A stretch of DNA of 64,000 nucleotides from an uncultured Planctomycetia bacterium (GCA_963809785.1 CAWEKV010000001.1:3464408-3528407), one strand, 5' to 3'. Positions 3,601 to 63,844 are shown, numbered from the stretch's first letter. Made by a program: numbers and translations. The notes: a model not told the origin generated them from the sequence alone.

Positions 3601-4579
3601 TCGGCGGGTCGGCGGCGGAGAACCAAGGGCGACGCGGTCATCTGGGAAGCCGACGGCCAGATCGCCCCGTCCGCGGTCGTGACGCTGCAAGGCAGCCAGC
3701 CGTCGCTCCTGGACCTGAACGGCCACAAGGCCGCGTTCGGCAAGCTGCTGCTGTCGAAGGCCGCCGTGATCCGCACGGGCAAGGGCGGCGGCGCTCCGGG
3801 TCAAGCAGCTCTTCGTGGACGGCAAGCGGCTGAAGGACGGCGTCTACCGGCTCCGCAGTCGTGGCTGGAGGGCACCGGGGACCGTGACGGTTGACTCGCG
3901 CGTGGACGTCCAGGGCGTCATCGGCTCGCCGGAGGTCGCGATCGGCCCGGGCAACATCGGCAACCTGACCGGCGACACGAAGATCGCCTACCCATCGAGC
4001 GGCGGCGACTTCGACATCGTCACGAACGGCTTCACGCTCACGCTCGACAGCGGCGACGGCAACGCGTTCGCCTACTCGGGCAGCATCTCGGGCACCGGCA
4101 ACGTGGAGTTCTTCATGGGGCCGTCGTACACCGGCTACAAGGACGCCCCGCTGCGCTTGACGGGCGGCAAGCCGAACACCACGTCCGGCAAGTTCCTCGT
4201 GAAGAAGGGGCGCGTGCAGCTCGAGAAGCCCGAAGGCGTCGATGCGATCTCCGGCGACGTGATCGTCGGCGGACAGGGCTTCAACGACTGCCTGTTCTGG
4301 AAGCACAGCCACCAGCTCAAGGACACGGTGAACATCACGCTGCTCGACGCCGGCAACAACGGCGCGGCCTACCTGCATCTCAACGGCTGTCAGGAGACCG
4401 CCGCCAGCCTGACGATGACGGTCAACAACAAGGTGCTCACCGATTCGATCGCAGGCGCCGGCGGTGTCTTGACCGTCAAGGCGCTGACCGTCGGCGGAGC
4501 AGCACAGTCCGCCGGCACTTACACGGCCGCCACGGCCAAATGGATCGAAGGCAAAGGGAAAGTGATCGTGCGGCCGTAA
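677..4579 (+). pseudogene. Giant secreted glycosidase: GH20 beta-N-acetylhexosaminidase + discoidin (F5/8 type C)-like domain + autotransporter-type beta-strand repeats; frame broken many times
   Basis: Signal peptide MRKSRLSLVLVVAIGASCPAG. The GH20 core IKDWPHADYCGVMLDVARQ...LQLHLTDDQGW...LVPELEVPGHSGA continues in another frame (1572-2342: HIGSDEV...IKWEG...LVAWEQ). Next come GDHFTLTFTQ / VYAIEVLTGINRQG..VQVSADGTKFTTVAKL, then repeated ..TYSG.ISGTG.VE.. / LNG....LT units, ending ...KWIEGKGKVIVRP* at 4579. The coding signal hops among + ORFs 677-, 813-, 1015-, 1572-, 2790-, 3107-, 3231- and 3815-4579. Confidence 0.7.
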
Positions 4580-4727
4580 TATCCCGAATCGGAAATTGGC
4601 CAAACGAAGTTGCCAGGTCGGGTCGCCGAGATGGTGGCCTCAGAGGCACAGAGAGCTTGGCGCGGCGTAGCCGCAACTAAACGAGCGCGACGAGCAAGCT
4701 GCGTCCACATCTCGCGGAAAGGAAGGC

Positions 4728-4847
4728 AACCACGAATAGTACGAATAACACGAATAAGAGGAGCAAGCCGAGCGATGGCGTGTTCGTCGCGAACTTGCGT
4801 CGTCGCAAATTCTGAGTTTCATTCGTGGTATTCGTGTTATTCGTGGT
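4728..4847. repeat. Hairpin with arms made of tandem ~9-nt units (ccacgaata/gtacgaata/acacgaata), ~62-nt spacer
   Basis: The left arm aaccacgaatagtacgaataacacgaata (4728-4757) is the near-perfect reverse complement of cattcgtggtattcgtgttattcgtggtt (4820-4847). It is AT-richer than its surroundings and lies in the GH20/ggt intergenic region. Confidence 0.85.
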
Positions 4848-4886
4848 TGTCCTTCTTCGCTTCAGGACACGGGAATATCGAGCCCG

Positions 4887-6493
4887 ATGATTGCGAATCG
4901 AACCAGGGCCGTCGTGGCGGGCCGGCACGGCGCCGTGGCCTCCGCGCATCCACTCTCTAGCCAGGTTGGGCTGGATTGCCTCCGCACCGGAGGCAACGCG
5001 ATCGACGCGGCGGTCGCCATGGCCGCGGCGCTCAACGTCGTGGAACCGTACATGAGCGGCGTCGGCGGCGCCGGCTTGCTGCTGCTCTATCTGGCTCGCG
5101 GCGAAACGAAGACTCTCAACTTCAGCGGCAACACGCCGGCCGCTGCCATGCCCGAGCAATTCACGCCGCAAAGCGTTGACGTTGGGCCGCGCGCCTGCTT
5201 GATTCCCGGCAACGTGGCGGGGTGGTTGGAGGCGCTGCGCGGCACGGCACCCAGCCGGCCACCGCGGTGTTTGCTCCCGCCATCCGCCTGGCCGAGGAAG
5301 GGTTCCCGCTGCACCCCCTGAACGTCCGCCTGATCGAGCAATCGCTGCCGCGGCTGAATCCTCCGGCCATGCAGATCTACGGAAGCGTGCCGCAGCGGAT
5401 CGGCGCCATCCTTCAGCAGCCGGAGCTGGCCCTTACGCTCCGCTCGATTGCCGAGCACGGCGCCGACTACTTCTATCGCGGGCCGCTCGCTCATCGGATC
5501 GCCGACTATGTCCAGTCGCAAGGCGGGCTGCTGACGCGCGACGATCTGGCCGGCTACGAGCCCCAGTGGCGGCAGCCCGTCGGCGTGACGTACCGCGGGC
5601 TGGAGGTCAAAACCTGTCCTCCCAACGCGGAAGGTTTTCAGATTCTCCAGACGCTCAAGCTGCTCGAATCGCGGGACCTCGGATCGCTGGGCCACAATTC
5701 CGCGGATTATATTCACCTGCTCAGCGAGGCCATGAAACTCGCCACCGCCGACCGGATTCGCTGGGGAGGCGACCCGAAGTTCCACGACGCTCCCTTGAAT
5801 CGTCTGCTGGCGGAAGACTACCTGGCCGAGCGGCGGAAGCGGATCGATCCCCTGAAGGCGTCCCGCAGCGAGGGCGAACGCTGGCGGGGCTCGCACGCGG
5901 CCGGGACGGTCTTGCCGGGCATGATCGAGGGCCTGACGACGCACCTGACCGCCGTTGACGCCGAGGGCAACGTGGCCAGCATCACGCAGTCGCTGGGCGG
6001 CGGGTTTGGCTGCGGCGTGGTCGTGCCGGAAACAGGAATCGCGCTCAACAACCTGCTGTTCTGGACGGAGATCGATCCGAGCTGCTTCACGCCGAACCTG
6101 ATCCATCCCGGCAAGCAATGGTCCTGCCCGATGGCCCCCGTGCACGTCTTTCACCCGGACGGCTTCTGGTTTTCGATCGGCACGCCCGGCAGCTACGGCA
6201 TCCTGCAAACGACGGTGCAAATGCTATTGAATATCGTCGAGTTCGAGGCCGATCCCCAGTTGGCCATCGATGCGGCCCGTTTTCGGATCTACGAAGAAAC
6301 CCGGATGCAGATCGAAGACCGCGTTTCGCGCGCCACCCGCGACGAGCTGACGGCTCGCGGACACGTGTTGGAACCGATCGGCGATTACTCGATGCTGGTC
6401 GGCGGCGGGCAAGCCGTGATGATCGATCGGCAATCCGCTGCGCGCCTGGCCGGCGCCGATCCGCGACGGGATGGCTATGCGCTGGCCTACTGA
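4887..6493 (+). CDS. ggt: Gamma-glutamyltranspeptidase family protein (one frame change near 5225)
   Basis: N-terminal part (4887-5321 ORF): HGAVASAHPLSSQVGLDCLRTGGNAIDAAVAMAAALNVVEPYMSGVGGAG. It continues in ORF 5222-6493 with FAPAIRLAEEGFPL and the autoprocessing-site region LTTHLTAVDAEGNVASITQSLGGGFG, then GTPGSYGILQT. Confidence 0.85.
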
Positions 6494-8994
6494 TTTGAGT
6501 GAATCTGTTGGGCCTTCAAGGAATGCGCGGGCGGCGCCTCGCCGCCCTCCGCTTGACCGAACGCCCGGCGAACTTCCGGGCGCGACAACTCCGAGAAGAT
6601 CCAAATGCCCAGCGCGATCCCTAGCGGAAAGCCAGGGTGAAGCGGCAGCATGGCCAAGACGGTGGCCGTTCGCACGAGCCGCCACGATTCGAGGTCCCAC
6701 AAACGCGCTCCACCCAGCCACATCAGTCCTGACAGCGGGATATTGATGACGAGCAGAATCGCGAGCCCCACCGCACCGTAGAACGCCGTGTCATCCCCGG
6801 TGACTTTTTCACTCAGCTTGACGAGGAGAGCTAGCAGGATCACCACGTTCAGGTTCGCCAAGACGATCAATAGCGACGCCGGCAGTTTGACGTACGACTG
6901 GGCCTGTGGATCGGGACGACGCCGCGCGCTGAGCGTCGGCTCGCGTGTGGTGGCTGATGGTGCCCCGTCGAAGGTCTGCACCTCGGTAGTCATCAGGCTA
7001 CCGGCCTCGTCCCTCGGCGTCGCCACTCTGGCCAAGGGCACCCGGTGCTTGGGCGATCGCGCCGCAGCTTGCGATGTGGACAGGCCCAGCAAGCGCCGCA
7101 GCGGCCGCCACGTACGGTGCATGAACAGGATTGTCCACAGGAACAGTACGAGGCTGAATTGCCCGGCGGCCCGCACGTCACGTTCGCTGGGGACGAAAAG
7201 CTGGCGCATGCCCTCACTGGCGAACCTGGCTGATACGAAGTATGGTTCGGTCTGACTTCGCCGACCCCAACTCTGTGGCGTCACCATCCAGGTACCGCCC
7301 GAGGGTGTTTTCACTCGCAAATCGCTCCAATTGGCGGGGTCGCGCCGTGGCAGCGGCTGATCCATTTCCAGCATCAGCACTTCGCCGTGAATCGCGACCA
7401 GCCGTGCCGGCACGCCGCCGAACCACCAGTCGGCGTTGTCCCCCTCGTGCACGAGAGGCGTTTTTTCAGGGGCCGTGGGGATCGTGACCGTCACGCCGCC
7501 GGGAACGGAGTCAGTCGCCGCGCGGTTCAACCAGGTGGCGCGGCGATACCAGATGTCGCCGTGGACCAAGGGCAGCTTTGGCACCCAGGGGATCGCCAGC
7601 AGCAGGAGCAGGGCCCCTGCGACGTAGTGTGCCCAGGCACGCCCCTTGGCCCGAGTCGGCCGGCTGGGATCCGCCGTCCGGCCCACGATCCAAAGCAAGC
7701 CGGCGAAGCCACCGATGACCAGGAAGAACCCTGCCACGGCCTGTTCGCTGAGCGCTGCTTCGGTGCTGAATTGAGCCCATCCCGCCAGGAGCAGCACCGT
7801 GGTCACCGCGGCGACCGCCAGATACCACCGCCACGCCAACGGGGCCTCGAGAAAACTCAGGACGCCGCCACCACGCTCTTGCTCGTCCCTACCGCGGCGC
7901 ACGAGCTCAGTCCTCGTTTCGCCAGATGCTCGTTGCACGTCCGGTCGTGATAAGACGGACAGGACCCAAACGCCCAAGGGAATTCCCAATGGAAAGGCGA
8001 GGCTTAAAGGCAGCATGGCTAGAATCGCTCCGGCGCGCGCCATTCCCTGCGATTCACCGCTGGCCATCCGGGCGGCACCAACGAGCATGACGCCCGATGA
8101 CGGCATATTCACTACCAGGACCGCGCCCAAGAACATCATCAGCGCCGCTTCGTCGAAGCCATCCGGATCGTTGTGATCGATTGCCGCGGCGACGAGGAAG
8201 GCCGCGGCCAGGCTCACCAGGTTGAACACCGCATACAGAGCCAGCGCCCAAGCCGGCCCTTTGAGGCGCGCCGTGAGCGCCGCCTTCAATGCCGCATCGT
8301 CAGCGGCAGGCGCGCCGAGGTTTGCTGTCGTTGCGGCCGGGGGCGATTGCTGACCGATCTTCTGAACATCGGTCTTTACCTCGCTGGCATGTTGGTATCT
8401 TTGCTCAGGCTCATGTTCCAGCGAGCGGATCGATGAAGTCGTGCTGCACTGCAGGGCGTCGCAGATTTGCGGCACGATCGCCAGGGCCTCGTCCGCCGCC
8501 AGTTGGCCGCCGGCAAGCACCTGCCGCAGCGTCGCTCCTTCGACGTATTCCATCAGGAAGTAATAGAGCCCATCGGCTTGCCCGAAGTCGTAGACAGCCA
8601 CGATGTGCGGATGGCTGAGCCGGGCCAGGGAGCGTGCCTCGCGCTGAAAGCGCTCGGCGAAGTCTGGCACGCTTCGCACTTCCGGCGGCAGCACCTTGAG
8701 GGCAACCAAGCGGTCCAAGACAGGTTGGCGGGCCTTATAGACTGCCCCCATGCCGCCACGGCCGATGAGCTCGAGGATCTCCAAATGCGGAAACCGCTGG
8801 GCCAGCTCGGCGATCGACGGCGGAGTGAACCCGCCGGGCGGCGTGGCAGCGGTTGGCGCATCATCCGGCGAAACCCCGCAGCCCGTCTGGCTCTCCCTCA
8901 AACCGCCATCGAGCAAGCACTTAGGGCATATCCCCTGGGGTGCTTCGGCGGCGATTTCTCCGCCGCAGGTAGGGCAACGACGAATGTCGGTCAC
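6487..8994 (-). CDS. Ser/Thr protein kinase-like polytopic membrane protein; kinase domain lacks its catalytic core (pseudokinase)
   Basis: GTG start at 8994 with AGGAG 6 nt upstream. N-terminal zinc ribbon CPTCGG..CPKC. Kinase subdomains I-V are present (IGRGGMGAVYKA, VALKVL, FQREARSLARL, LMEYVEG). After QICDALQ the sequence jumps directly to ..IRSLEHEPEQRYQHASEV. I found no HRD, DFG or APE motif anywhere in the 835 aa. The C-terminal two thirds are hydrophobic and contain an internally duplicated module ending ...GIPLGVWVLSVLSRPDVQRA / ...GIALGIWIFSELSRPEVRRA. Confidence 0.8.
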   Translation of the reverse strand: MTDIRRCPTCGGEIAAEAPQGICPKCLLDGGLRESQTGCGVSPDDAPTAATPPGGFTPPSIAELAQRFPHLEILELIGRGGMGAVYKARQPVLDRLVALKVLPPEVRSVPDFAERFQREARSLARLSHPHIVAVYDFGQADGLYYFLMEYVEGATLRQVLAGGQLAADEALAIVPQICDALQCSTTSSIRSLEHEPEQRYQHASEVKTDVQKIGQQSPPAATTANLGAPAADDAALKAALTARLKGPAWALALYAVFNLVSLAAAFLVAAAIDHNDPDGFDEAALMMFLGAVLVVNMPSSGVMLVGAARMASGESQGMARAGAILAMLPLSLAFPLGIPLGVWVLSVLSRPDVQRASGETRTELVRRGRDEQERGGGVLSFLEAPLAWRWYLAVAAVTTVLLLAGWAQFSTEAALSEQAVAGFFLVIGGFAGLLWIVGRTADPSRPTRAKGRAWAHYVAGALLLLLAIPWVPKLPLVHGDIWYRRATWLNRAATDSVPGGVTVTIPTAPEKTPLVHEGDNADWWFGGVPARLVAIHGEVLMLEMDQPLPRRDPANWSDLRVKTPSGGTWMVTPQSWGRRSQTEPYFVSARFASEGMRQLFVPSERDVRAAGQFSLVLFLWTILFMHRTWRPLRRLLGLSTSQAAARSPKHRVPLARVATPRDEAGSLMTTEVQTFDGAPSATTREPTLSARRRPDPQAQSYVKLPASLLIVLANLNVVILLALLVKLSEKVTGDDTAFYGAVGLAILLVINIPLSGLMWLGGARLWDLESWRLVRTATVLAMLPLHPGFPLGIALGIWIFSELSRPEVRRAFGQAEGGEAPPAHSLKAQQIHSNQ

Positions 8995-9086
8995 GGCAGG
9001 CTCCTGTCAATTCCAGCGGTCTCTACCTTCCTCTACAGGAAATGCCGGCAAACGTGACACAATTAGATAGTAGATAGAGGCGCACT

Positions 9087-9779
9087 TCACTCCAGGGCCG
9101 TGCGTAACGCCCGCAGCTCGTCATCCACCTGCTCGGGGTCGGCCACCGTCTGAGCGATCTCGGCTCGCAGAAGTTCTCGATACCGCTTCCGCAGCCGATG
9201 GAGGGCCTGGCGCGCGGCCTCGGGGGACACGTGCAGCGCTTCGGCTGCCTCGGCCGCAACATGGGACGACGACTGGCCCGCCAGGTATTCTTTGAAGGCT
9301 GCAAACTGTCGCTCGCGTCCGGTGGCGATTTGCTCGTCCCGCAGCCGCCGCATGACCACGTCGAGCACGGCCAGGGCCCACTGCCGATCGAACAGTTTCT
9401 CAGGCGTGAGGTGGTGTACAGGTTCGAGCGAATAGCGGGATTCGCTGGCCGCGAAGTCGATCGAGACGAGGGAGTACCCCCCGCCCCGTTTCGCTGCCAG
9501 CGCCTTGTCCCGCTCGTTGGCCAAGAAGTTCCGCAGGGCGGTCAGCAAGAACCCGCGAAACCGCCCCCGCTCCGGCTGGGCCGCCGCCAAGGCCCGCTTT
9601 TCCAACAAGTGGGCAAAGAACTCTTGGACCAGGTCCTGGGCCTCTGGTGGCTTGTGCGCGTGACGCCGTGCATATGCGTACAGAGGATACCAGTAGCGTC
9701 CGCAGAGGTCCGCCAGGGCCGTGGCAGCCCTCTGCCCGCCATCGCCCGCGGCCCGAGCCACGAGGCTCCACTGCGTCAT
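9087..9779 (-). CDS. ECF-type RNA polymerase sigma factor (planctomycete kinase-associated type)
   Basis: From ATG 9779: MTQWSLVARAAGDGG..ALADLCGRYWYPLYAYARR. Region 2-like DLVQEFFAHLLE and region 4 HTH AAEALHVSPEAARQALHRLRKRYRELL. The ORF-track start at 9899 adds 40 Arg-rich residues that are unlikely to be coding. Confidence 0.8.
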   Translation of the reverse strand: MTQWSLVARAAGDGGQRAATALADLCGRYWYPLYAYARRHAHKPPEAQDLVQEFFAHLLEKRALAAAQPERGRFRGFLLTALRNFLANERDKALAAKRGGGYSLVSIDFAASESRYSLEPVHHLTPEKLFDRQWALAVLDVVMRRLRDEQIATGRERQFAAFKEYLAGQSSSHVAAEAAEALHVSPEAARQALHRLRKRYRELLRAEIAQTVADPEQVDDELRALRTALE

Positions 9780-9918
9780 CGGAAAGGAATCGACCGGCGC
9801 TGATTCCGAACGCCGGGGGGCAGATCGCTCATCGCGGCGAGGATGTGAACTAGCGCGGCACCATACAAGGCATTGTAAGTAGCCAATCCGGCGCGGCAAA
9901 TCTTGGCTGGAGTGTGGG

Positions 9919-10552
9919 TCAGTCGCTGCTAACCTTCAGCTGCGACGTGTGATCGTGGACGATCAGCCAGCGGTCGTCGAACTTGCGAATCGCGAGCGAA
10001 AAGTTGCCGGACACGGGGTCGCTCTCGCTCGACACCCCATTGCCCGAGGACCAGCGCCGCGGAGTCGCCCAACGGCGTGATTTCAAGTCCGCCGAATCTG
10101 AGGCGGCCCATTTTCTCCGGTGTCGGGTACCGCTCGCGGTAGCGATTCAGCGTCTCCGTCCAGCCCCGAGTCGTCTTACCGCCCGAGCTGAACGTGAGCG
10201 ATTCCGACTTCCAGTAATGCTCCATGAACGAATCGAGATCACCACGATTCCAGGCATCCTCCTGGGTTCGCAACACCGATTCGACCGCCGCACGAATCGA
10301 CTCGCCTTGAACGGTTGACGGTTCTGTTTCGCGGGAGCTGCGGCGCGAGGCCGCGACCTCTGCCTCGGCACGGGCGCGTTCCGCCTGCATCCGGGCTTCT
10401 GCTTCGGCCAGGCGAGCGCGCTCGGCTTCGTTCGCCGATTCCGCCGCGTGTCGCCCCATGACGAAATAAGTTACGCCGCCAGCCGCCAACAACAGGATCA
10501 AGGCCAGACCGATTGCGACAACGACGGCGGCGCCATCCGAGCGGTTTTCCAT
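9919..10552 (-). CDS. Membrane-anchored NTF2/SnoaL-like (DUF4440-type) protein; one frame change near 10025
   Basis: MENRSDGAAVVVAIGLALILLLAAGGVTYFV (TM helix), an Ala/Glu/Arg-rich coiled segment, then IRAAVESVLRTQEDAWNRGDLDSFMEHYWKSESLTFSSGGKTTRGW..VLGQWG. The natural C-terminus ..SDPVSGNFSLAIRKFDDRWLIVHDHTSQLKVSSD* is in the adjacent frame and ends at 9919. Confidence 0.65.
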
Positions 10553-56321: not shown

Positions 56322-56539
56322 AGGTCCTCGTGGCAGGCAGCGGTGCTCTGTCGCTCCGTGGGCAAGATTAGGACATGAGCGACGTGGCAGATCAAGGGGG
56401 CCACGGGGGCCACCGGAGTCTGGAAGAACTGCTCAAGCCGCTTGCAAAGCTACTGCCGCGGGACCTGGCGGAGGCGAGATGCGTTGTCCTTTTTTAGACC
56501 TGCGCCGTAAAATTTGTTTGGCCTCGGAGGTCAGGGGAC

Positions 56540-57430
56540 ATGCAGAAGACACTTACCGAATATGGTGCGCCGGTAGACGCCCGAGCGATGGTCGAGCCGC
56601 CCGATGCGGCGGAGCTGGTCTTCGAGCCGGGCCATCCCGGTCTGGGCGACGAGGCTTACGTCGAGCGGCGGCGCGAGCTGTTCGCCCTGCTGCCGCCGGC
56701 ACCGCCTGGAGCGGCTCGGCCCGCCGCTGATCGACTACACGCCGGAAGAGACGCGCATCTGGCGCGAGGTCAGCCCCAAGCTCGACGAGCTGCACCGACG
56801 GCACGCCAGCGGGATCTATCTGGCGGCCAAGCGCAAGCTGGGCATCTCCGAGACAGAAATCCCCCAGTTGCGGCTGCTCAGCGACGAGATCCGCAAGACG
56901 ACGCGGATGCACCTCGTGCCGGCTGAAGGGGCACTCCCTTACCGCACGTTCTACTCGTACATCGGCCGAGCGGGGCTTTCCGGTCACGCAGTTCATCCGG
57001 CACGGCTCGCACCCGGAGTTCACGCCGGAGCCGGACATGATCCACGACTGCCTGGGTCACGTGCCGCCCCTGATGAACCAGGACTACGCCGAGCTGCTGA
57101 CGCTGATCGGCAAGGCCACGTCCACCACGCCGCACGGCGACCAGGTGCTGGCCCTCAAGCGGTTTAGCTGGTTCAGCATCGAGTTTGGCCTGATCGAGGA
57201 GCAGGACGAAACGAAGGTGTTCGGGGCGGGCATTCTGTCATCGACGGGCGAGATTCCGTTCTCGCTTTCCCCCGACGTGCGTCGGCGGCCGTTCGTCACC
57301 GACGACGTCATCGAGACGGATTACGACCCTTCGCGGATGCAGGAAACGCTGTTCGTCGGCGCCTTCGATGCCCTTTCTGCGGCAGGAGATCGAACGGCTG
57401 GTGAAGCGATTCGGCATCCCAGTGCGGTGA
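56540..57430 (+). pseudogene. phhA: Aromatic amino acid hydroxylase (phenylalanine-4-hydroxylase-like); at least 3 frame changes
   Basis: GHPGLGDEAYVERRRELF.., IDYTPEETRIWREV.., FTPEPDMIHDCLGHVPPLMNQDYAELL (iron-binding His pair), ..FSWFSIEFGLIEE. End ..LVKRFGIPVR* at 57430 in a third frame. Confidence 0.8.
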
Positions 57431-57589
57431 GGTTCGAGCTAGCTTCTCCCTCGCGGGTGCGTCACGTGAGTGTGCGCACTGCCGCGCGGCTACATGACAT
57501 GGACGTAGCCGTGCCAGTGGCTAGGATAAAGTCAGACGGCTTTCCAGCTCATTTTGCCGCTTACGGCCAAATCATCGTCAGAAGAGTCC

Positions 57590-59817
57590 ATGAGCCAAAG
57601 TGCCCTGTCCGCCGTAGCGAACGGCCGCTCCCCTCGCCGTGCTTTGTCCTGGCCCTGGCTGCGGCCGATTGTGGAGTGGTTCTTTTGTTACCCCGTCCTG
57701 TTCCTGGAGGCGGCGGGGCTGCTGGCGATCGTGCTGGGCATTGAGGAGACGTGGGATGTGCTGGGGGCCAGGATGATCGGCCTGCCCGGCCTGTTCTGGC
57801 ACCACTCGATCTGGATTCAGCTTACCGCGGGCTTTGGCGTCGCCGCCGTGCTGGGCGAGATTTGCCTGGTCGGTTATCTCCTCGATGCGGAGCACAAGTG
57901 GATGCGCCGCCGCAGCCCTGCCGAAGACGCCGGTCAGGACGCGCCGCACCTCACGCTGGTGATTTCTTCGGCACCGGCACCTATCCCTTGCTGGTGCTGG
58001 CGGCCGCTTTGCCGGCGGTCCGGGCGATCGAGCTGCGCTGGCCCCTGCCCGTTGGGTTGTTGATAGGGACGGCACTGGTGTTCGCCCTGACCTATTTCGG
58101 CGTGCTCGATCTCTCCGGAGAAGACCGGCCTGTTCGACTGGATGCTGAACCTCCGCAAGCTCCGGCAGCGCATGCCGGAAGTATGGCGCGAGGAGCTGGG
58201 CATGCGCGGCTTCGTCTGCGGGTCAGCCCGGCGGAGCGGAACGAGCTGTCGAGGTACTTCCACCTGCATTCCTTCCAGGTCTTCGTCATGGCCTTGCTGG
58301 CGGCGATCTATTTGGCGCTCTATCTGGCCGCCGTTTACTGGACGGCCGATTTCGTCTCGCCGGCACTGGTGATCTGCGTGCTGCTGGCCCTGATGACGAC
58401 GGCCTACGGCTTCATCGTGTTCCACTTCCCGCTGCGGCACTTCGGCGTGGTGTTCCTGCTGGTCGCCGGCTACTTCGGCGTGGCCAGCTACGTGTCGAAG
58501 CAATACCAGTTCGCCGGCCTGGACTACGGGAGGCCGACCGTGCTGGCCCAAGTCGATGTCGGGCCGGAGCAAAGCGGGCTTTTGCCCAACGACCGACAGG
58601 ACGACGACGACGGCGTGCTCAACCGCTGGCGCGGCCAGTTCTCCCAGCACTGGCCCGGGCAGTTCCCCCCGAACCAAAAGCCGGTGCTGGTGGTCGTGGC
58701 CACCAAGGGGGGTGGAGCCCGCGCGGCCGCGTGGACGACCGCCGTGCTGGCGCGGCTGGAAGAAGACCTGCCGCGGCTGCCGTACCACGTGCGGCTCATC
58801 AGCGGGGCCTCTGGCGGCATGCTGGGGGCCGCATACTACGTGGCGACACTCAATCCGCCCGGCTCGGAAGCATTGCACACGGTTTCCAGCGAGCAGCTCG
58901 TCAATCGCATCTCGCTGGACAGCCTGAGCCCCGTCGTGCGGCACCTGGCCTTACCGCTGCGCGGCGACCGCGGCGAGGCGCTCGAGCAAGCCTGGGAGAA
59001 GAACACCCAGGGCGCCTTGGCCCGGCCGCTGGCCGATCTGCGCCGTGCGGAGAGCGCGGGTTGGTGCCCATCCCTGGTCTTCGCGCCGATGCTGGTCGAG
59101 GACGGCCGGCGACTGGTCATCAGCAACCTCGATCTGGCGCTGCTGGTCAACGAGAGGACCAGCCTGTTGCGCGAAGGGCACTGGCCGAACGAGCCGTCGC
59201 AGCAATTCTGGGACTGCGCCGTCGGGATGGCAGTTCTTCGAGCTGTTTCCCTACGCCACCGACGTGCGGCTCAGCACGCTGGCCCGAATGAATGCCTCGT
59301 TCCCGTATATCAGCCCCGACGCCGAGCTGGCCACCTCGCCGCCGCAGCGGGTAGTGGACGCGGCCTATTACGACGCCTATGGCGTGAACCTGGCCGCACT
59401 GTGGATTCACTTCTACCGCCAGTGGCTCACAGAGAACACGTCCGGAGTGGTGCTGATCCAGATTCGCGACCAGGAGCGCAGCCGCGACCTCGAGGCCCCC
59501 TCATCGATGCCCGGCTGGCGGAGGGCCTTGTCGCGCTTTACTACGCCGATCGAGGGGGCCATTCGCGGCGCGATGCCACGATGTCCTACCGCAACGACGA
59601 GCTGGTGCACATTGTCAGCGAGGACCTGCGGCAACAGAAAGACCCGGAGTTCTTTCGCACGTTCGTCTTCGAGTTCTCGGAGGACGCCCCGTTCAGCTGG
59701 TACCTGCCGCCGGAGAACCGCGATCGCCTGAAGAAGGAAGTGGCCCGCAGCGACAGCGGTTTCGCCCGCGAGGCGCAGGCTCTGCGGGAATGGTGGGGCC
59801 GCCGCGAGGGCAGATGA
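57590..59817 (+). pseudogene. Patatin-like phospholipase with a ~330-aa polytopic N-terminal membrane region; at least 3 frame changes
   Basis: TM-rich N-terminus (ORFs 57554- and 57751-); PVLVVVATKGGGARAAAWTTAVL..RLISGASGGMLGAAYY (G-x-S-x-G nucleophile elbow); ..FPYISPDAELATSPPQRVVDAAYYDAYG (catalytic Asp region, ORF 59045-). End ..REWWGRREGR*. Confidence 0.7.
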
Positions 59818-60095: not shown

Positions 60096-60548
60096 ATGCG
60101 ATATCTGGTCAAAGCGCGCGTGAAACCGGGCCGCGAGGCGGAGCTCTTACGGGCGATCGAGGACGGGACCCTCGGCCGCGGCTCGGTGGCCGGGGACGAG
60201 TATCTTCACAACATGGCCCAGGCCCGGCTGTTGGTTGACGGGTCGGTGCGTTGGGTCGAGGTCTGCTTCTGCGACGTGCCGCTGGCTGAAGAGCGGCCTT
60301 ATTGGGAGCAGTTCTTCGAGCTGACTCGCGTGCAGGATGCCCATGCCCGGCATCGCTGCCGGGACCTGAATGGCACGGAGCCTTGGGCCTGTGGCGAGTG
60401 CGACTGCACGGAAAAGCTCGAGGCGACGATGGCCGGCTGGGGCAGGCCGTTCTTGGAAGTGCTGCGAGAGGCCGCATTTGGCTCCGTCCTGTCCATCAGC
60501 AACGAAAAAGGAGGGTGCCCCCCGGGGGACACCCTCCCTTGTCTTTGA
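60096..60548 (+). CDS. Hypothetical Cys/His-rich protein (150 aa)
   Basis: Intact ORF: MRYLVKARVKPGREAELLRAIEDGTLGRGSVAGDEYLHNM..VRWVEVCFCDVPLAEERPYWEQFFEL..HARHRCRDLNGTEPWACGECDCTEKLE. The last ~15 codons run through the terminator hairpin, so the exact 3' end is uncertain. Confidence 0.6.
   Translation: MRYLVKARVKPGREAELLRAIEDGTLGRGSVAGDEYLHNMAQARLLVDGSVRWVEVCFCDVPLAEERPYWEQFFELTRVQDAHARHRCRDLNGTEPWACGECDCTEKLEATMAGWGRPFLEVLREAAFGSVLSISNEKGGCPPGDTLPCL
60505..60546. terminator. Bidirectional intrinsic terminator between convergent genes
   Basis: aaaaa-GGAGGGTGcccccc/gggggaCACCCTCC-cttgtcttt: a GC-rich stem flanked by an A-run and a T-rich tract, so a U tract follows the stem on either strand. 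Confidence 0.65.
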
Positions 60549-60611
60549 GCATCCGCGGCTTTCGCACACACAGGGCCAGGCGCCAGGCCGGGATGCTTTC
60601 TTGGTGAACGA

Positions 60612-61066
60612 CTAGGCAGCCTTCCGCTTGGGAAGCTCGGTCTTCTTCGGCTCGCCCATCGGGGGGGCCGGTGGACCGCTCGGCGGGGCGCATCGCCCTT
60701 CATCTCAACCGAGGGAGCATAGCCGCCGCCGCAACCATGGCAGCCGTGACAACCGTGGCAACCATGACAACCGTGGCAGCCATGGCAACCGTGGCAGCCC
60801 CAGCCACCGTGGCAACCGTGGCAACCGTGGCAGCCATGACAACCGTGGCAGCCGCGACCGAACAGACCACGCAGGAAGCCGCCGCAACCGCCGCAACCGT
60901 GGCAGCCGTGGCAGCCGTGACAACCCCAACCGCCGCCAAAGCAGCCGCCGCAACCGTGGCAACCGAAGCAACCGCCAGCCTGAGCCGTGTTGCTGTCCAC
61001 CGACATGGCGGTGAAGCCAACCACGGCCAGGAACAGGGCGATGCCCAAAACCAGAACTCGATTCAT
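60612..61066 (-). CDS. Secreted (Gly-Cys-His)n repeat protein; putative periplasmic metal- or heme-binding protein
   Basis: ATG 61066 with GGAGG 8 nt upstream. MNRVLVLGIALFLAVVGFTAMSVDSNTAQA (Sec signal), then GGCFGCHGCGGCFGGGWGCHGCHGCHGCGGCGGFLRGLFGRGCHGCHGCHGCHGCHGGWGCHGCHGCHGCHGCHGCHGCHGCGGGYAPSVEMKGD. As given, the frame reads on to 60299. A 1-nt shift near 60690 gives ..APPSGPPAPPMGEPKKTELPKRKAA* ending at 60612, just before the terminator. Confidence 0.7.
60715..60975. repeat. 9-nt coding microsatellite-like array (ggY tgY caY) with synonymous variation
   Basis: The plus strand reads gtggcaacc / gtggcagcc / atgacaacc / atggcagcc repeatedly, which is the complement of GGx-TGy-CAy codons. 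Confidence 0.85.
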
Positions 61067-61594
61067 CCTAGGAACCTCCAAATACGGGTACAGGGTAACG
61101 GGATCCCGAACCTTCGGCCGTCTTGTGTTTCCGCTGCCAGCCGACGGCCGCTGCTCGCGCGGATTGGTCTGCGGACGCGCTGGAGAGGCGCTGCGGACGG
61201 TTGCCCTGTGAGAAACCGCCCGCGGTCGCCTTGCCGCGGCCGCCGTCCGGTGGTGAGAACCGCGTGGCCGGTCGCCGGCGGTCCGGCGCCTTGAGCTCGC
61301 GGGGCACAGCCGATTGGGGGAGGTGCCTTCGCGGTCAAGGAGCCGTCGCGGTCAACAAACTGTAGGTTGCGGTTGGGCGAGGAGCGGCGATCGGCGAAAA
61401 TCGTCCAGCCCGGAAGCCGCGTCCGATGGTGACGACGATGCGGGTAGTGAGGATGAATCGGAATGAAGGATCGGCGTGAAGGGTCGGAAGTCGATTTCGT
61501 GACAAAACACGCTTGGTTCGATTTGTTCGACTGACAACTCGCCGTCACGAACCGACTCCCGACCCCGTTCCCCACACGTCAAGTTCGATACAAC

Positions 61595-62091
61595 GTGAGT
61601 CAGCCGCCCTCCACGACCAAAGTGCCCACGCCCCAGCGGCCTTCGCGGGGCGTCGTGGCCGCCATCGACTACGGCGGGGTGCGGGTCGGCGTGGCCCTGA
61701 GCGACGAGGGCCGGACGATGGCCCTGCCTCACGCTACCTACCCGCGGACTTCGCAGGCCGCCGATGCGGCATGGTTCCGCCGGCTGGTGAAGGAATATCA
61801 GGTAACGCTGTTCGTCGTCGGCCTGCCGGTCCATCTGGATGGCCGAGAGAGCCAGGAATCGCGTGCGGCGCGGCAGTTCGGCCAGTGGCTAACGGCGGAA
61901 ACCCGCGTCCCCGGCGTGTTCTTCGATGAGCGCTTCACTACGGCCGAGGCCGAAGAAGTGCTGCGCGGCCAGGGCCTCACCGCCAAACGGCGCAAGCCGG
62001 CGCGACATGCTCGCCGCGCAGATTCTGCTGCGCGACTTTCTGGCTGCCGGCTGCCAGGGACAAGAAGCCCCCGGCGGACTGGATGATTGAG
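61595..62091 (+). CDS. ruvX: Holliday-junction-resolvase-like nuclease RuvX/YqgF (frame change near 62000)
   Basis: VVAAIDYGGVRVGVALSD..VTLFVVGLPVHLDGRESQESRAARQFGQWL..VFFDERFTTAEAEEVL. The natural C-terminus ..DMLAAQILLRDFLAAG..* is in the adjacent frame and ends at 62091. Confidence 0.8.
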
Positions 62092-62118: not shown

Positions 62119-63844
62119 CTACAGCGCCTTGACGTAGACGACCTTGTCGTCGCCGGGCCCGTAGAACTCTTTCAGCACGGCCTCGCAGTGATAGCCGCAG
62201 CGTTCGTAGAAGGCTCGCGTGGGCTGGTATTGCGCACGGTTCGACGTCTCGATGTATACCCGCCGGCCGCCGGCGCCGCGGATGAGCCGCTCGGATTCCT
62301 CGAGTAGCAGCCGGCCGAGGCCGAGACGCTGGTGCCCTTGATCGACGGCAATCCAGAACAAGTCGAAGCTGCCCGCCGTGCAGGCGATGGGGCCGTAGCA
62401 GGCGTATGCGACCGGCCGGCCATTCAATTCGGCAAAGGCAAAGGAATAGCCCGATGCCTCCCCCTTGGCCAGCCGCTCTTCAACTAGCTCGACCGCCACA
62501 TCGCACTCCGCCGCGTAGAAGAAGCCGGTCGATTCGACAATTCGCCGCACCGCCGCCGGATCGGCAGTCAGGACGTCGTGGCGGAATGTCGGGCAGGAGC
62601 CAGGAGTCAGGGAACAGGAGTCAGACAACGGGCTATCCGTTTGCCTCCCCTGACCCCTGCCTCCTGATTCCTGACCTCTGCCTCCTGCCTCCTGATTCCT
62701 GCCTCCTGATTCCTGCCTCCTGACGCCCGCTTCCTCCACAATCCGCTCCATGGCATCCTCGTAGCTGATTCCCGCCCGCTGGAGCGCGGCCGTGTAGCCG
62801 GCGTCAGGGCTGAGGCAGGGGTTCGTGTTGATCTCCAGGATCCACGGCCCTCCGGCGCGGTCTACGCGAAAGTCCACCCGCACGTAGCCGCGGAGGTCGA
62901 AGACCTCCCAGCAGCGGCGGGCCAGCTCGCTGAGCCGCTCGACGAGCGGCCCGTCTTCCGGCGGAAAGTCGAATCGCCGCGGCGTCTGGTGGAACTCGAA
63001 GGAGGCGTCGTCCCACTTGGCCTCGTAGCCCACGATCCACGGCTTGCCGGCGGGGAAGGCCGAAAAGTCGATCTCCGCCGGCGGCAACGTAGTGGGCACA
63101 CTCCGTGAGCCGTGGCCGACGGCTAACGGATTGTGCCTGCCACCATCGGTCAATAGCGACAGGTTGAACTCGCGGCCTTCGATGAACCGCTCCGCGAAGC
63201 ACTCTCGCCCCAGCCGCGCGGCATGCTCCTCGACGCGGCGACGCAGCTCCTGGGCATCGGCCACGGTGACGATGGCATCGTCACCCAGCCCGAACGAGGC
63301 GTGCTCCCACACGGCCTTGAGGATGAACTGGCCAGGAGAGCTATCTCGCTCCGCAGAGGAGTCAGGAGTCAGGAGACTGGACTCAAGAGAGGCCGCGGCA
63401 CCTTGATTGCTGACTCCTGATCCCCAACTCCTGACTCCTGACCTCTGACTGCTGACCCCTGACTTTTCGACCCCGTACCACGGCGGCGTCGGCAGGCCGG
63501 CTTGCCGCAGGCGCTCCTTGGCCAGCAGCTTGTTGTTAGTGAGCCAGAGGGCCGCAGCCGAATTGCCGGTGTAGGGAAGGCCCAGCGATTCGAGCAGCGA
63601 GGGGAACACGTGCGCCAGCCGATCCCACCCGGCCAGCGACTCGACCAGATTGAACACCACGTCTGGCCGCAGGTCCACCAGCGACTCGCCGCGCGGCGGC
63701 CAGGTCCAGCGTGCAGTCCAGAGACTGGCAGTCGTGTCCGCGGCGCGAGAGGGCCGCCATCACTGCGTCGCGCTGCACCAGCACGTCCCCTTCGTCGGCG
63801 GCCGCGCCGGGCGCGACCGCGTTATGCACGACCAGCACGCGCAT
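62119..63844 (-). CDS. Fusion protein: D-Ala-D-Ala-ligase-like ATP-grasp domain + C-terminal GNAT acetyltransferase, with two hairpin-array insertions read in frame (frame change near 63690)
   Basis: MRVLVVHNAV.. (ORF 63536-63844), then ORF 62119-63678: DVVFNLVESLAGW..LPYTGNSAAALWLTNNKLLAKERL..ERFIEGREFNLSLL..YVRVDFRVDRAGGPWILEINTNPCLSPDAGY (ATP-grasp), then ..FWIAVDQGHQRLGLGRLLLEESERL..YIETSNR..TRAFYERCGY (GNAT). Confidence 0.75.
62591..62727. repeat. Intragenic hairpin array (caggagtcag / ctgattcctgcctcctg units) at the ATP-grasp/GNAT junction
   Basis: gggcaggagccaggagtcagggaacaggagtcagac .. cccctgacccctgcctcctgattcctgacctctgcctcctgcctcctgattcctgcctcctgattcctgcctcctgac. Translated as ..RRQESGGRNQEAGGRGQESGGRGQGRQTDSPLSDSCSLTPGSC.. 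Confidence 0.85.
63357..63464. repeat. Second intragenic hairpin array of the same caggagtcag family
   Basis: gaggagtcaggagtcaggagactggactc .. tgctgactcctgatccccaactcctgactcctgacctctgactgctgacccctgac. Translated as ..KSGVSSQRSGVRSWGSGVSNQGAAASLESSLLTPDSSAE.. Confidence 0.85.

Follow-up and report, generated by a model that had tools for sequence, protein, structure and literature searches.

A planctomycete gene for a Gly-Cys-His repeat protein and its unnamed family of putatively exported, cysteine-rich proteins

The window, a stretch of 64,000 nucleotides (nt) of DNA from an uncultured Planctomycetia bacterium (GCA_963809785.1 CAWEKV010000001.1:3464408-3528407), contains a minus-strand gene that encodes an array of Gly-Cys-His units. 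We are highly confident that this is a real gene and that it belongs to a protein family essentially restricted to Planctomycetota. The family, here labelled MNR, is unnamed and previously unstudied, and membership in it is the only one that can be demonstrated for the window protein. Judging from the sequences compared, the window protein appears to be the most extreme member known, with a GCHGC core that grew in this lineage through the tandem duplication of units of 9 or 18 nt. With regard to function, we tentatively favour a role beyond those proposed in an earlier note on this DNA, and one that competes with the metal buffer suggested there. The protein may be an exported, disordered and thiol-rich polypeptide that is cross-linked by disulfides in the cell envelope.

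The Gly-Cys-His array is real and far beyond chance. Behind an N-terminus that resembles a signal peptide, 22 Cys and 16 His, the numbers that a hand count in the earlier note had given, lie within ~85 residues, and the translation of the three blocks rich in Gly, Cys and His reads exactly as quoted there. The gene is organised as follows, L001 being the syntenic ortholog described below.

61075-61079, minus strand: GGAGG ribosome-binding site, 8 nt 5' of the ATG and the same in L001
61066-61064, minus strand: ATG start codon, read from the sequence
60977-61066, minus strand: putative signal peptide or anchor, codons 1-30, MNRVLVLGIALFLAVVGFTAMSVDSNTAQA, with a cleavage-type site between AQA and G (family alignment, AlphaFold2)
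60878-60976, minus strand: block 1, residues 31-63, GGCFGCHGCGGCFGGGWGCHGCHGCHGCGGCGG (translation)
60854-60877, minus strand: spacer FLRGLFGR, residues 64-71, a 'G-L/F-L/F-x-R/G-L-F/R' motif ahead of the GCHGC core
60800-60853, minus strand: block 2, residues 72-89, (GCH)5 then GGW (translation, repeat finding)
60722-60799, minus strand: block 3, residues 90-115, (GCH)7 then GCGGG (translation, repeat finding)

Start codon and ribosome-binding site were both found as the note had described them. Perfect (GCH) runs comprise 7, 5 and 3 units. The claim that a Cys occurs every three residues within the blocks holds generally, but block 1 contains the stretch C-F-G-G-G-W-G-C with a spacing of 7. 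By Tandem Repeats Finder the periods are 9 nt and 18 nt, with a score of 160, the 18-nt unit being present in 6.8 copies with 83% matches. As stated previously, the codons of the array vary synonymously (GGC 20/GGT 18, TGC 18/TGT 4, CAC 12/CAT 4). Among the 12 perfect units in the window this variation is confined to C/T at third codon positions, and the six types of GCH unit require at least 3-5 mutations, every one of them synonymous. The pattern suggests selection on the peptide, yet it provides modest evidence, weaker than the earlier note implied, because part of it has been inherited via the 18-nt double unit.

Homologs share the N-terminus and the frame of the window gene, which upholds the earlier assignment of coding capacity to the minus strand. 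Two plus-strand open reading frames (ORFs) across the array, at 60628-61014 and 60671-61294, were dropped, since the homologs fix the minus frame. A search against Rfam gave only far sub-threshold, repeat-driven matches, and we therefore conclude that neither a riboswitch nor an RNA gene is present.

A profile of 26 members, searched against 1.84 billion representative proteins, retrieved 366 clusters at E<=1e-3, of which 173 also pass E<=1e-10; most of the proteins have 100-170 amino acids (aa). Scanning species-representative genomes with a query built from 8 sequences yielded 57 loci, all in metagenome-assembled genomes (MAGs), and all but one labelled Planctomycetota, mostly Pirellulales. 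The earlier note had proposed to check whether a signal peptide with a GCH array recurs in Planctomycetota; the family, with its signal-type N-terminus and Cys-rich centre, is recurrent there. That note recognised no characterised family. This stands insofar as Pfam and NCBIfam scans of the members revealed no curated model, but with at least 366 clusters the protein is not an orphan. The sole locus with a different label, L025, comes from an Anaerolineales MAG and could reflect a binning error or a transfer. Among the matches listed, a metagenome scan contained nothing nearer than L001; it was swamped by GCHGCHGC patterns, with TIGR03000 proteins, artefacts of alternative frames and unrelated proteins with repeats among these matches. 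No relevant paper came up in literature searches on TIGR03000 or on the motif string.

Family members consist of an N-terminal signal-type segment, a hypervariable, low-complexity Cys/His/Gly-rich centre with a GCHGC core, and a Pro/Ala/Glu-rich linker or Pro/Ala tail. The N-terminal consensus reads MNRxLxLGIAIFLAVVGIALLGG..AxAGHGC. Across 26 sequences including the window protein, M1, N2, R3, F12 and A14 are invariant, and G8, V16, G17, A28, A30 and G31 are at least 90% conserved. Conservation of the last three residues agrees with the signal peptide proposed in the earlier note, which is of the cleavable type by its look. Many members end in RxPFGFRQVSFRR; the motif R-x-P-F-G-F-R-x-V-S-F-R-R was found in 47 of 89 members, while 37 others, including L001 and L008, are without it. 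Some members (P0003, P0010, P0017) combine the MNR N-terminus with a C-terminal TIGR03000 domain.

Composition and motif statistics were obtained for the mature parts of 89 non-redundant members, which contain 14.8% Cys, 18% Gly, 12.6% Ala, 8% Pro, 8% Arg and 6.8% His. Successive Cys are most often 3, 4, 1 or 2 residues apart. CHGC occurs in 67 of the 89 members and CHGCHGC in 22, and the repeat unit varies by lineage, with GCH in the window protein and RCHG, CCGRD/K, CCAPx, GCY or GCS elsewhere. Perfect (GCH) runs reach 7 units in the window protein, and none exceeds 3 units among 251 other proteins retrieved. The window protein also has the highest number of CXXCH motifs, 13 overlapping ones, compared with a family median of 1 and none at all in 29 of 89 relatives. 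Arrays of the form (C-[HRS]-[GD]-C)n were also seen in unrelated low-G+C proteins (L058, L074, L079, P0061, P0083), where they lie between globular N- and C-terminal domains; they seem to form a family of their own that has CxxC triplet repeats.

The closest relative, L001, is encoded in another Planctomycetia MAG, with RuvX upstream in both genomes and a nucleotide identity of 80-84%. The DNA of codons 1-30 is nearly identical between the two genes, and FLRGLFG of the spacer is shared, its eighth residue being R in the window protein and H in L001. Spacer-like motifs were seen in P0001, P0004, P0009, P0011, P0014 and L030, as well as in the TIGR03000 proteins P0023, P0029 and P0042; a regular expression finds the motif in 13 of 89 family sequences. 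Of the 20 Cys that align with L001, 19 are retained, against just 7 of 16 His; the residues found in place of His are G, S, F, Q, C or D. The codon differences comprise 28 synonymous and 22 non-synonymous changes. All indels in the array are multiples of 3, as the earlier note had expected of repeat-length changes; the gaps fall in block 1 and measure 3 nt and 15 nt. The Cys positions are under constraint, and the X residue of the repeat is not.

AlphaFold2, run with the family alignment, predicts a helix at residues 3-22 with a predicted local distance difference test (pLDDT) score above 90. The remainder has a pLDDT below 50, with a short helix predicted at residues 65-68. This model agrees with a helix that serves as signal or anchor, behind which the chain has no autonomous fold. 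In the scenario that we tentatively favour, the protein would be exported through Sec and, because the AxA site is conserved, would be cleaved after AQA. The mature chain would have no fold of its own, and its ~22 thiols, three residues apart, would be oxidised outside the cytoplasm to form intra- and inter-chain disulfides. The cross-linked protein would then become part of a cystine- and proline-rich protein layer of the planctomycete envelope. His and the other X residues of the protein could be substituted, and their side chains would serve to adjust charge, redox behaviour or metal affinity.

We favour disulfide cross-linking because Cys is the sole constant feature of the family and because Pro/Ala tails and CCAPx variants, akin to keratin-associated proteins, occur among its members. 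It is also favoured because exported Cys normally forms disulfides in an oxidising compartment, and because the family is confined to a clade in which Cys-rich proteins dominate the wall preparations. Early chemical analyses by Konig in 1984 and Liesack in 1986 reportedly found planctomycete envelopes to be rich in cystine and proline. Planctomycete cell-wall preparations were found to be dominated by Cys-rich proteins, and the wall was described as consisting mainly of protein (PMC8567305).

Several points weigh against this proposal. The Cys-rich wall proteins known from proteomics have YTV domains, of which the window protein has none, and the CXXC spacing is better suited to local disulfides within one chain than to cross-links between chains. 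In the family, Cys is most often followed by His (381 of ~1,500 Cys in the 89 members), and His, Asp, Ser and Asn, as typical companions of metal ligands, fit metal binding at least equally well. Furthermore, the window gene and L001 lack the usual family neighbourhood, having flanking genes that are common to these two only, and a search of all six frames of the window did not find the C-terminal PFGFRQVSFRR motif. Given that both neighbourhood and motif are missing, the two genes are a displaced, truncated sub-branch, and they may represent a drifting paralog. Finally, the reading-frame break described below, if real, would leave the gene inactive in this genome.

A close rival to cross-linking is an exported, metallothionein-like metal sponge, which we consider possible but doubtful. 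Here, the reduced (GCH)n chain would use thiolates and imidazoles as ligands for Cu(I), Zn(II), Ni(II), Co(II) or Cd(II), and would buffer or detoxify these metals outside the cytoplasm. The density and adjacency of Cys and His in the array, the frequency of His after Cys across the family and the dominance of metallothionein-like spacings (CxxC, CxxxC, CC, CxC) would all suit this role, and most members have kept the mature N-terminus GHGCHGC. His itself is nevertheless poorly conserved even in the closest ortholog, and no metal-homeostasis gene adjoins the window gene or forms part of the conserved family neighbourhood. The lack of a predicted fold would be compatible with metal-dependent folding, and metal-binding tails rich in Gly, Cys and His exist in the C-terminus of SlyD and in Hpn. 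On the other hand, known periplasmic metal binders favour Met and His, exported Cys tending to oxidise. Bacterial metallothionein models in Pfam and NCBIfam did not match the window protein, and a literature search on periplasmic metallothioneins returned nothing specific.

The 3' end of the gene does not read through in one frame. The earlier note placed the gene at 60612-61066, but this span has 455 nt, which is not divisible by 3, and the TAG at 60612-60614 lies in frame +2 with respect to the ATG at 61066. The frame as written stays open for 255 aa, to 60299, with no stop before the terminator, such that a transcript stopping at the terminator would carry no in-frame stop. An exact-protein look-up of the 255-aa ORF found no record. 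The elements of this region are:

60657-60705, minus strand: frame-change zone from frame 0 to +2, containing G3, C4 (60684-60687) and C7 (60661-60667) runs
60612-60690, minus strand: Pro/Lys-rich tail APPSGPPAPPMGEPKKTELPKRKAA and stop TAG 60612-60614, in frame +2 (translation)
60299-60611, minus strand: in-frame continuation of the as-written ORF, judged spurious and non-coding (GC pattern, terminator, overlap)
60548-60597, minus strand: conserved stem-loop in the 3' untranslated region (RNA fold; 87% identical to L001)
60502-60540, minus strand: intrinsic terminator, a 15-bp G+C-rich hairpin then UUUUU (RNA fold)

In the 3' tail, the given sequence has a gap of a single base. One base added at the G3, C4 or C7 run results in a 151-aa ORF that stops at TAG 60612-60614, which we infer to be the true stop. 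The most likely position is the C7 run, the sole G/C homopolymer of at least 7 nt within the 64-kb window. By a rough estimate from base composition, a few dozen G/C runs of this length would be expected in the window, and one is observed. The tail in frame +2 is similar to those of L001 (...PPPAVDGKKA, then stop) and L008 (...KKAKEGKKAA, then stop), and a Pro/Ala-type tail of the window protein is readable solely in this frame, after the one-base correction. G+C content at third codon positions and codon scores do not clearly separate frames 0 and +2 on so short a tail. The continuation at 60299-60611 crosses the terminator and overlaps the convergent plus-strand ORF 60096-60548. At the three frame offsets, the GC values of this ORF are of coding type (0.79/0.69/0.49), while those of the continuation are not (0.64/0.70/0.57).

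A hairpin terminator downstream of the gene had been pointed out before, and a strong one is indeed present after the out-of-frame TAG; the fold z-score of the 3' region is -3.7. L001 has a different hairpin at this position. The stem-loop just 5' of the terminator is conserved in L001, even though the adjoining coding tail cannot be aligned.

The gap is probably an assembly error, since other genes are similarly broken. The nearby phenylalanine-hydroxylase-type Biopterin_H gene (56501-57744, plus strand) can be read only via three frames with two changes, and three family genes on public, megabase-scale contigs of long-read MAGs (L034, L035, L045) are frameshifted inside their Cys-rich region, with the correct continuation visible in another frame. 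A patatin-like gene (57751-59817, plus strand) is counted with them: judged by eye, it seems to leave its frame and return, its middle reading sensibly only in an overlapping 228-aa ORF at 59045-59731 (plus strand), and Pfam matches residues 319-398 of the long ORF alone. The breaks in the Biopterin_H gene suggest frequent indel errors, or pseudogenes, in the assembly.

Alternatively, the frameshift could be real, and the locus a pseudogene or a phase-variable gene that switches at the C7 tract. The as-written ORF has no in-frame stop ahead of the terminator, the only long G/C run of the window sits within the frame-break zone, and the window gene and L001 have lost the C-terminal motif of the family. 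We nevertheless regard this as unlikely. Breaks in unrelated housekeeping-type genes nearby, above all in Biopterin_H, point to the assembly, as do the like breaks in family genes from long-read MAGs. Runs of C6-C8 are found in 8 of 57 family genes, where they are simply poly-Pro codons, and all sequence 5' of the break is intact and conserved.

The neighbours of the array gene in the window are:

61595-62086, divergent from the array gene and flanking it: RuvX gene
60096-60548, plus strand: convergent 150-aa ORF, family unmatched
62119-63678, minus strand: fusion of an ATP-grasp domain (D-Ala-D-Ala-ligase-like) with GNAT, beyond RuvX and ~1 kb from the array gene

None of these three is a plausible partner, and the earlier statement that no maturase adjoins the gene holds. 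The 150-aa ORF has a small cluster of Cys residues, WACGECDC, and ends at a stop codon within the terminator hairpin that it shares with the array gene. The ATP-grasp/GNAT fusion has an internal low-complexity linker, QESGGRNQEAGGRGQESGGRGQG.

Elsewhere in the family the neighbourhood is fixed in 38 of 57 loci, with a lipoprotein-like gene upstream (38/57) and membrane-protein ORFs downstream (37/57). In L002 (interval 3691-10471), the family gene is preceded, in this sequence, by genes for a GYF/zinc-ribbon protein, a secreted 198-aa protein, a P-loop ATPase and a lipoprotein-like 203-aa protein, and it is followed by genes for a 244-aa protein and a membrane protein with a weak match to SdpB (E=5e-4, far below the cut-off). 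An impression that this downstream membrane protein might be HTTM-like comes from the weak SdpB match alone. Pfam and NCBIfam scans of the canonical neighbour proteins were mostly empty, and tblastn of the neighbourhood proteins against the window found just an unrelated GYF domain. The P-loop ATPase has a sub-threshold match to the anti-phage protein NF053860 (E=1e-30).

The conserved N-terminus and hypervariable, Cys-rich core resemble precursor peptides, and the gene could thus encode the precursor of a modified ribosomal peptide, or a secreted redox-active or antimicrobial peptide. In this case the N-terminus would serve as leader and the core would be modified by remotely encoded enzymes. 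Such a role seems very improbable. The match to the His-Xaa-Ser repeat precursor HxsA4 (NF038313) reaches 24.7 bits, far under the cut-off of 55 bits, and what would serve as leader is a signal sequence, hydrophobic and carrying an AxA site. Membrane-protein ORFs follow the family gene in many loci, among them that of L002 with its weak match to SdpB-type maturation proteins, but the window gene and L001 have no SdpB-like neighbour. No radical SAM, cyclodehydratase or lanthipeptide enzyme is encoded nearby in the window, and the ATP-grasp/GNAT gene, although close, is separated from the array gene by the divergent RuvX gene. We rejected a graspetide link to ATP-grasp/GNAT, as graspetide cross-links require Ser, Thr, Lys, Asp and Glu residues, which are missing from the core.

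More speculatively, and with equally little likelihood, (GCH)n could form an extracytoplasmic cofactor polymer of packed c-type hemes or a Cys/His-metal 'wire' or sponge, matured in the usual loci by the downstream membrane proteins, of which that of L002 is weakly SdpB-like. If true, this would represent a new, planctomycete-specific kind of exported metal or redox scaffold.

Least credible is the dense scaffold of c-type hemes suggested in the earlier note, in which overlapping C-H-G-C-H units would act as CXXCH sites loaded by cytochrome c maturation. This machinery accepts exported unfolded chains, short CXXCH peptides can be matured, and the window protein, predicted to be exported and unfolded, has the highest CXXCH count of the family. 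However, the His of the motif is dispensable in relatives, which makes a heme scaffold unlikely: nearly all Cys but few His are kept in the syntenic ortholog (9 of 16 replaced), almost a third of the members have no CXXCH, and GCY, GCS or CCAP units take its place in relatives. No cytochrome family of Pfam matches, and one heme per six residues would be far denser than in any multiheme protein known to us.

Planctomycete envelopes have long been reported to be cystine- and proline-rich, and few of the responsible proteins are known. Our analysis defines a compact and easily recognised family of putatively exported Cys-rich proteins, with 366 clusters, no curated model and no paper found. Its most extreme member could be searched for in envelope proteomes as a concrete candidate, and it offers a simple polypeptide for tests of disulfide cross-linking, metal binding and heme loading. 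In addition, G+C-rich repeat genes are often frameshifted in long-read MAGs and can consequently be mis-called or missed.

Several known systems resemble the window protein in part. TIGR03000 proteins, defined by an uncharacterised NCBIfam domain (plancto_dom_1), came up as sequence matches in the protein search and share a signal-type N-terminus, a low-complexity G-C-X region and 'GLFxR...GCHGCHGC' motifs. Unlike the window protein, most of them start with MYSVVL..., come from Gemmataceae and have Tyr rather than His as their main X residue. The domain itself (75 positions, cut-off 43.1 bits) was not matched in the window protein, while P0002, P0003, P0010, P0017 and P0030, serving as positive controls, reach 54-82 bits.

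Bacterial collagen-like (Gly-X-Y)n proteins likewise have Gly at every third residue, as in the blocks, and a Pfam scan of the window protein at E<=10 returned a sub-threshold Collagen match only (E=0.01, 16 bits, cut-off 27.2 bits), with no YTV and no cytochrome match. The runs of the window protein are short by comparison, and Gly periodicity is not a family property, since relatives repeat with periods of 4 and 5. Multiheme c-type cytochromes share export-type N-termini and CXXCH motifs, but the window protein has no cytochrome domain, its spacing is too tight, no pattern of distal ligands is visible and the His of the motif is not conserved among its relatives. As for Hxs precursors, the NF038313 match is sub-threshold, and the radical SAM genes HxsB and HxsC are not among the neighbours of the array gene.

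The YTV-domain wall proteins of Rhodopirellula and Gemmataceae, which were found in envelope preparations and serve as a model for the proposed cross-linking role, are also planctomycete-specific, of export type and Cys-rich (PMC8567305). The window protein differs in being much smaller, in having no YTV domain and in being known here from its gene alone. CCAPx/CCQPx pentads in family members P0028, L007, L019 and L029 resemble the high-sulfur repeats of keratin-associated proteins. Mammalian keratin-associated proteins and the chlamydial proteins OmcA and OmcB are small, Cys-rich and part of a disulfide-hardened matrix or envelope, and Chlamydiae belong to the same superphylum as Planctomycetota. 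This is an analogy rather than homology, and a regular CxxC period of 3 is atypical of these proteins. Metallothioneins such as SmtA, the SlyD tail and Hpn share the high Cys/His content, the CxxC, CxC and CC spacings, the unfolded state in the absence of metal and the fast evolution of repeats. They are cytoplasmic, whereas the window protein has an export signal and its His residues are not conserved in the ortholog. Taken together, the window protein is a member of neither group, but it is most like the disulfide-hardened envelope proteins or the metallothionein-type binders.

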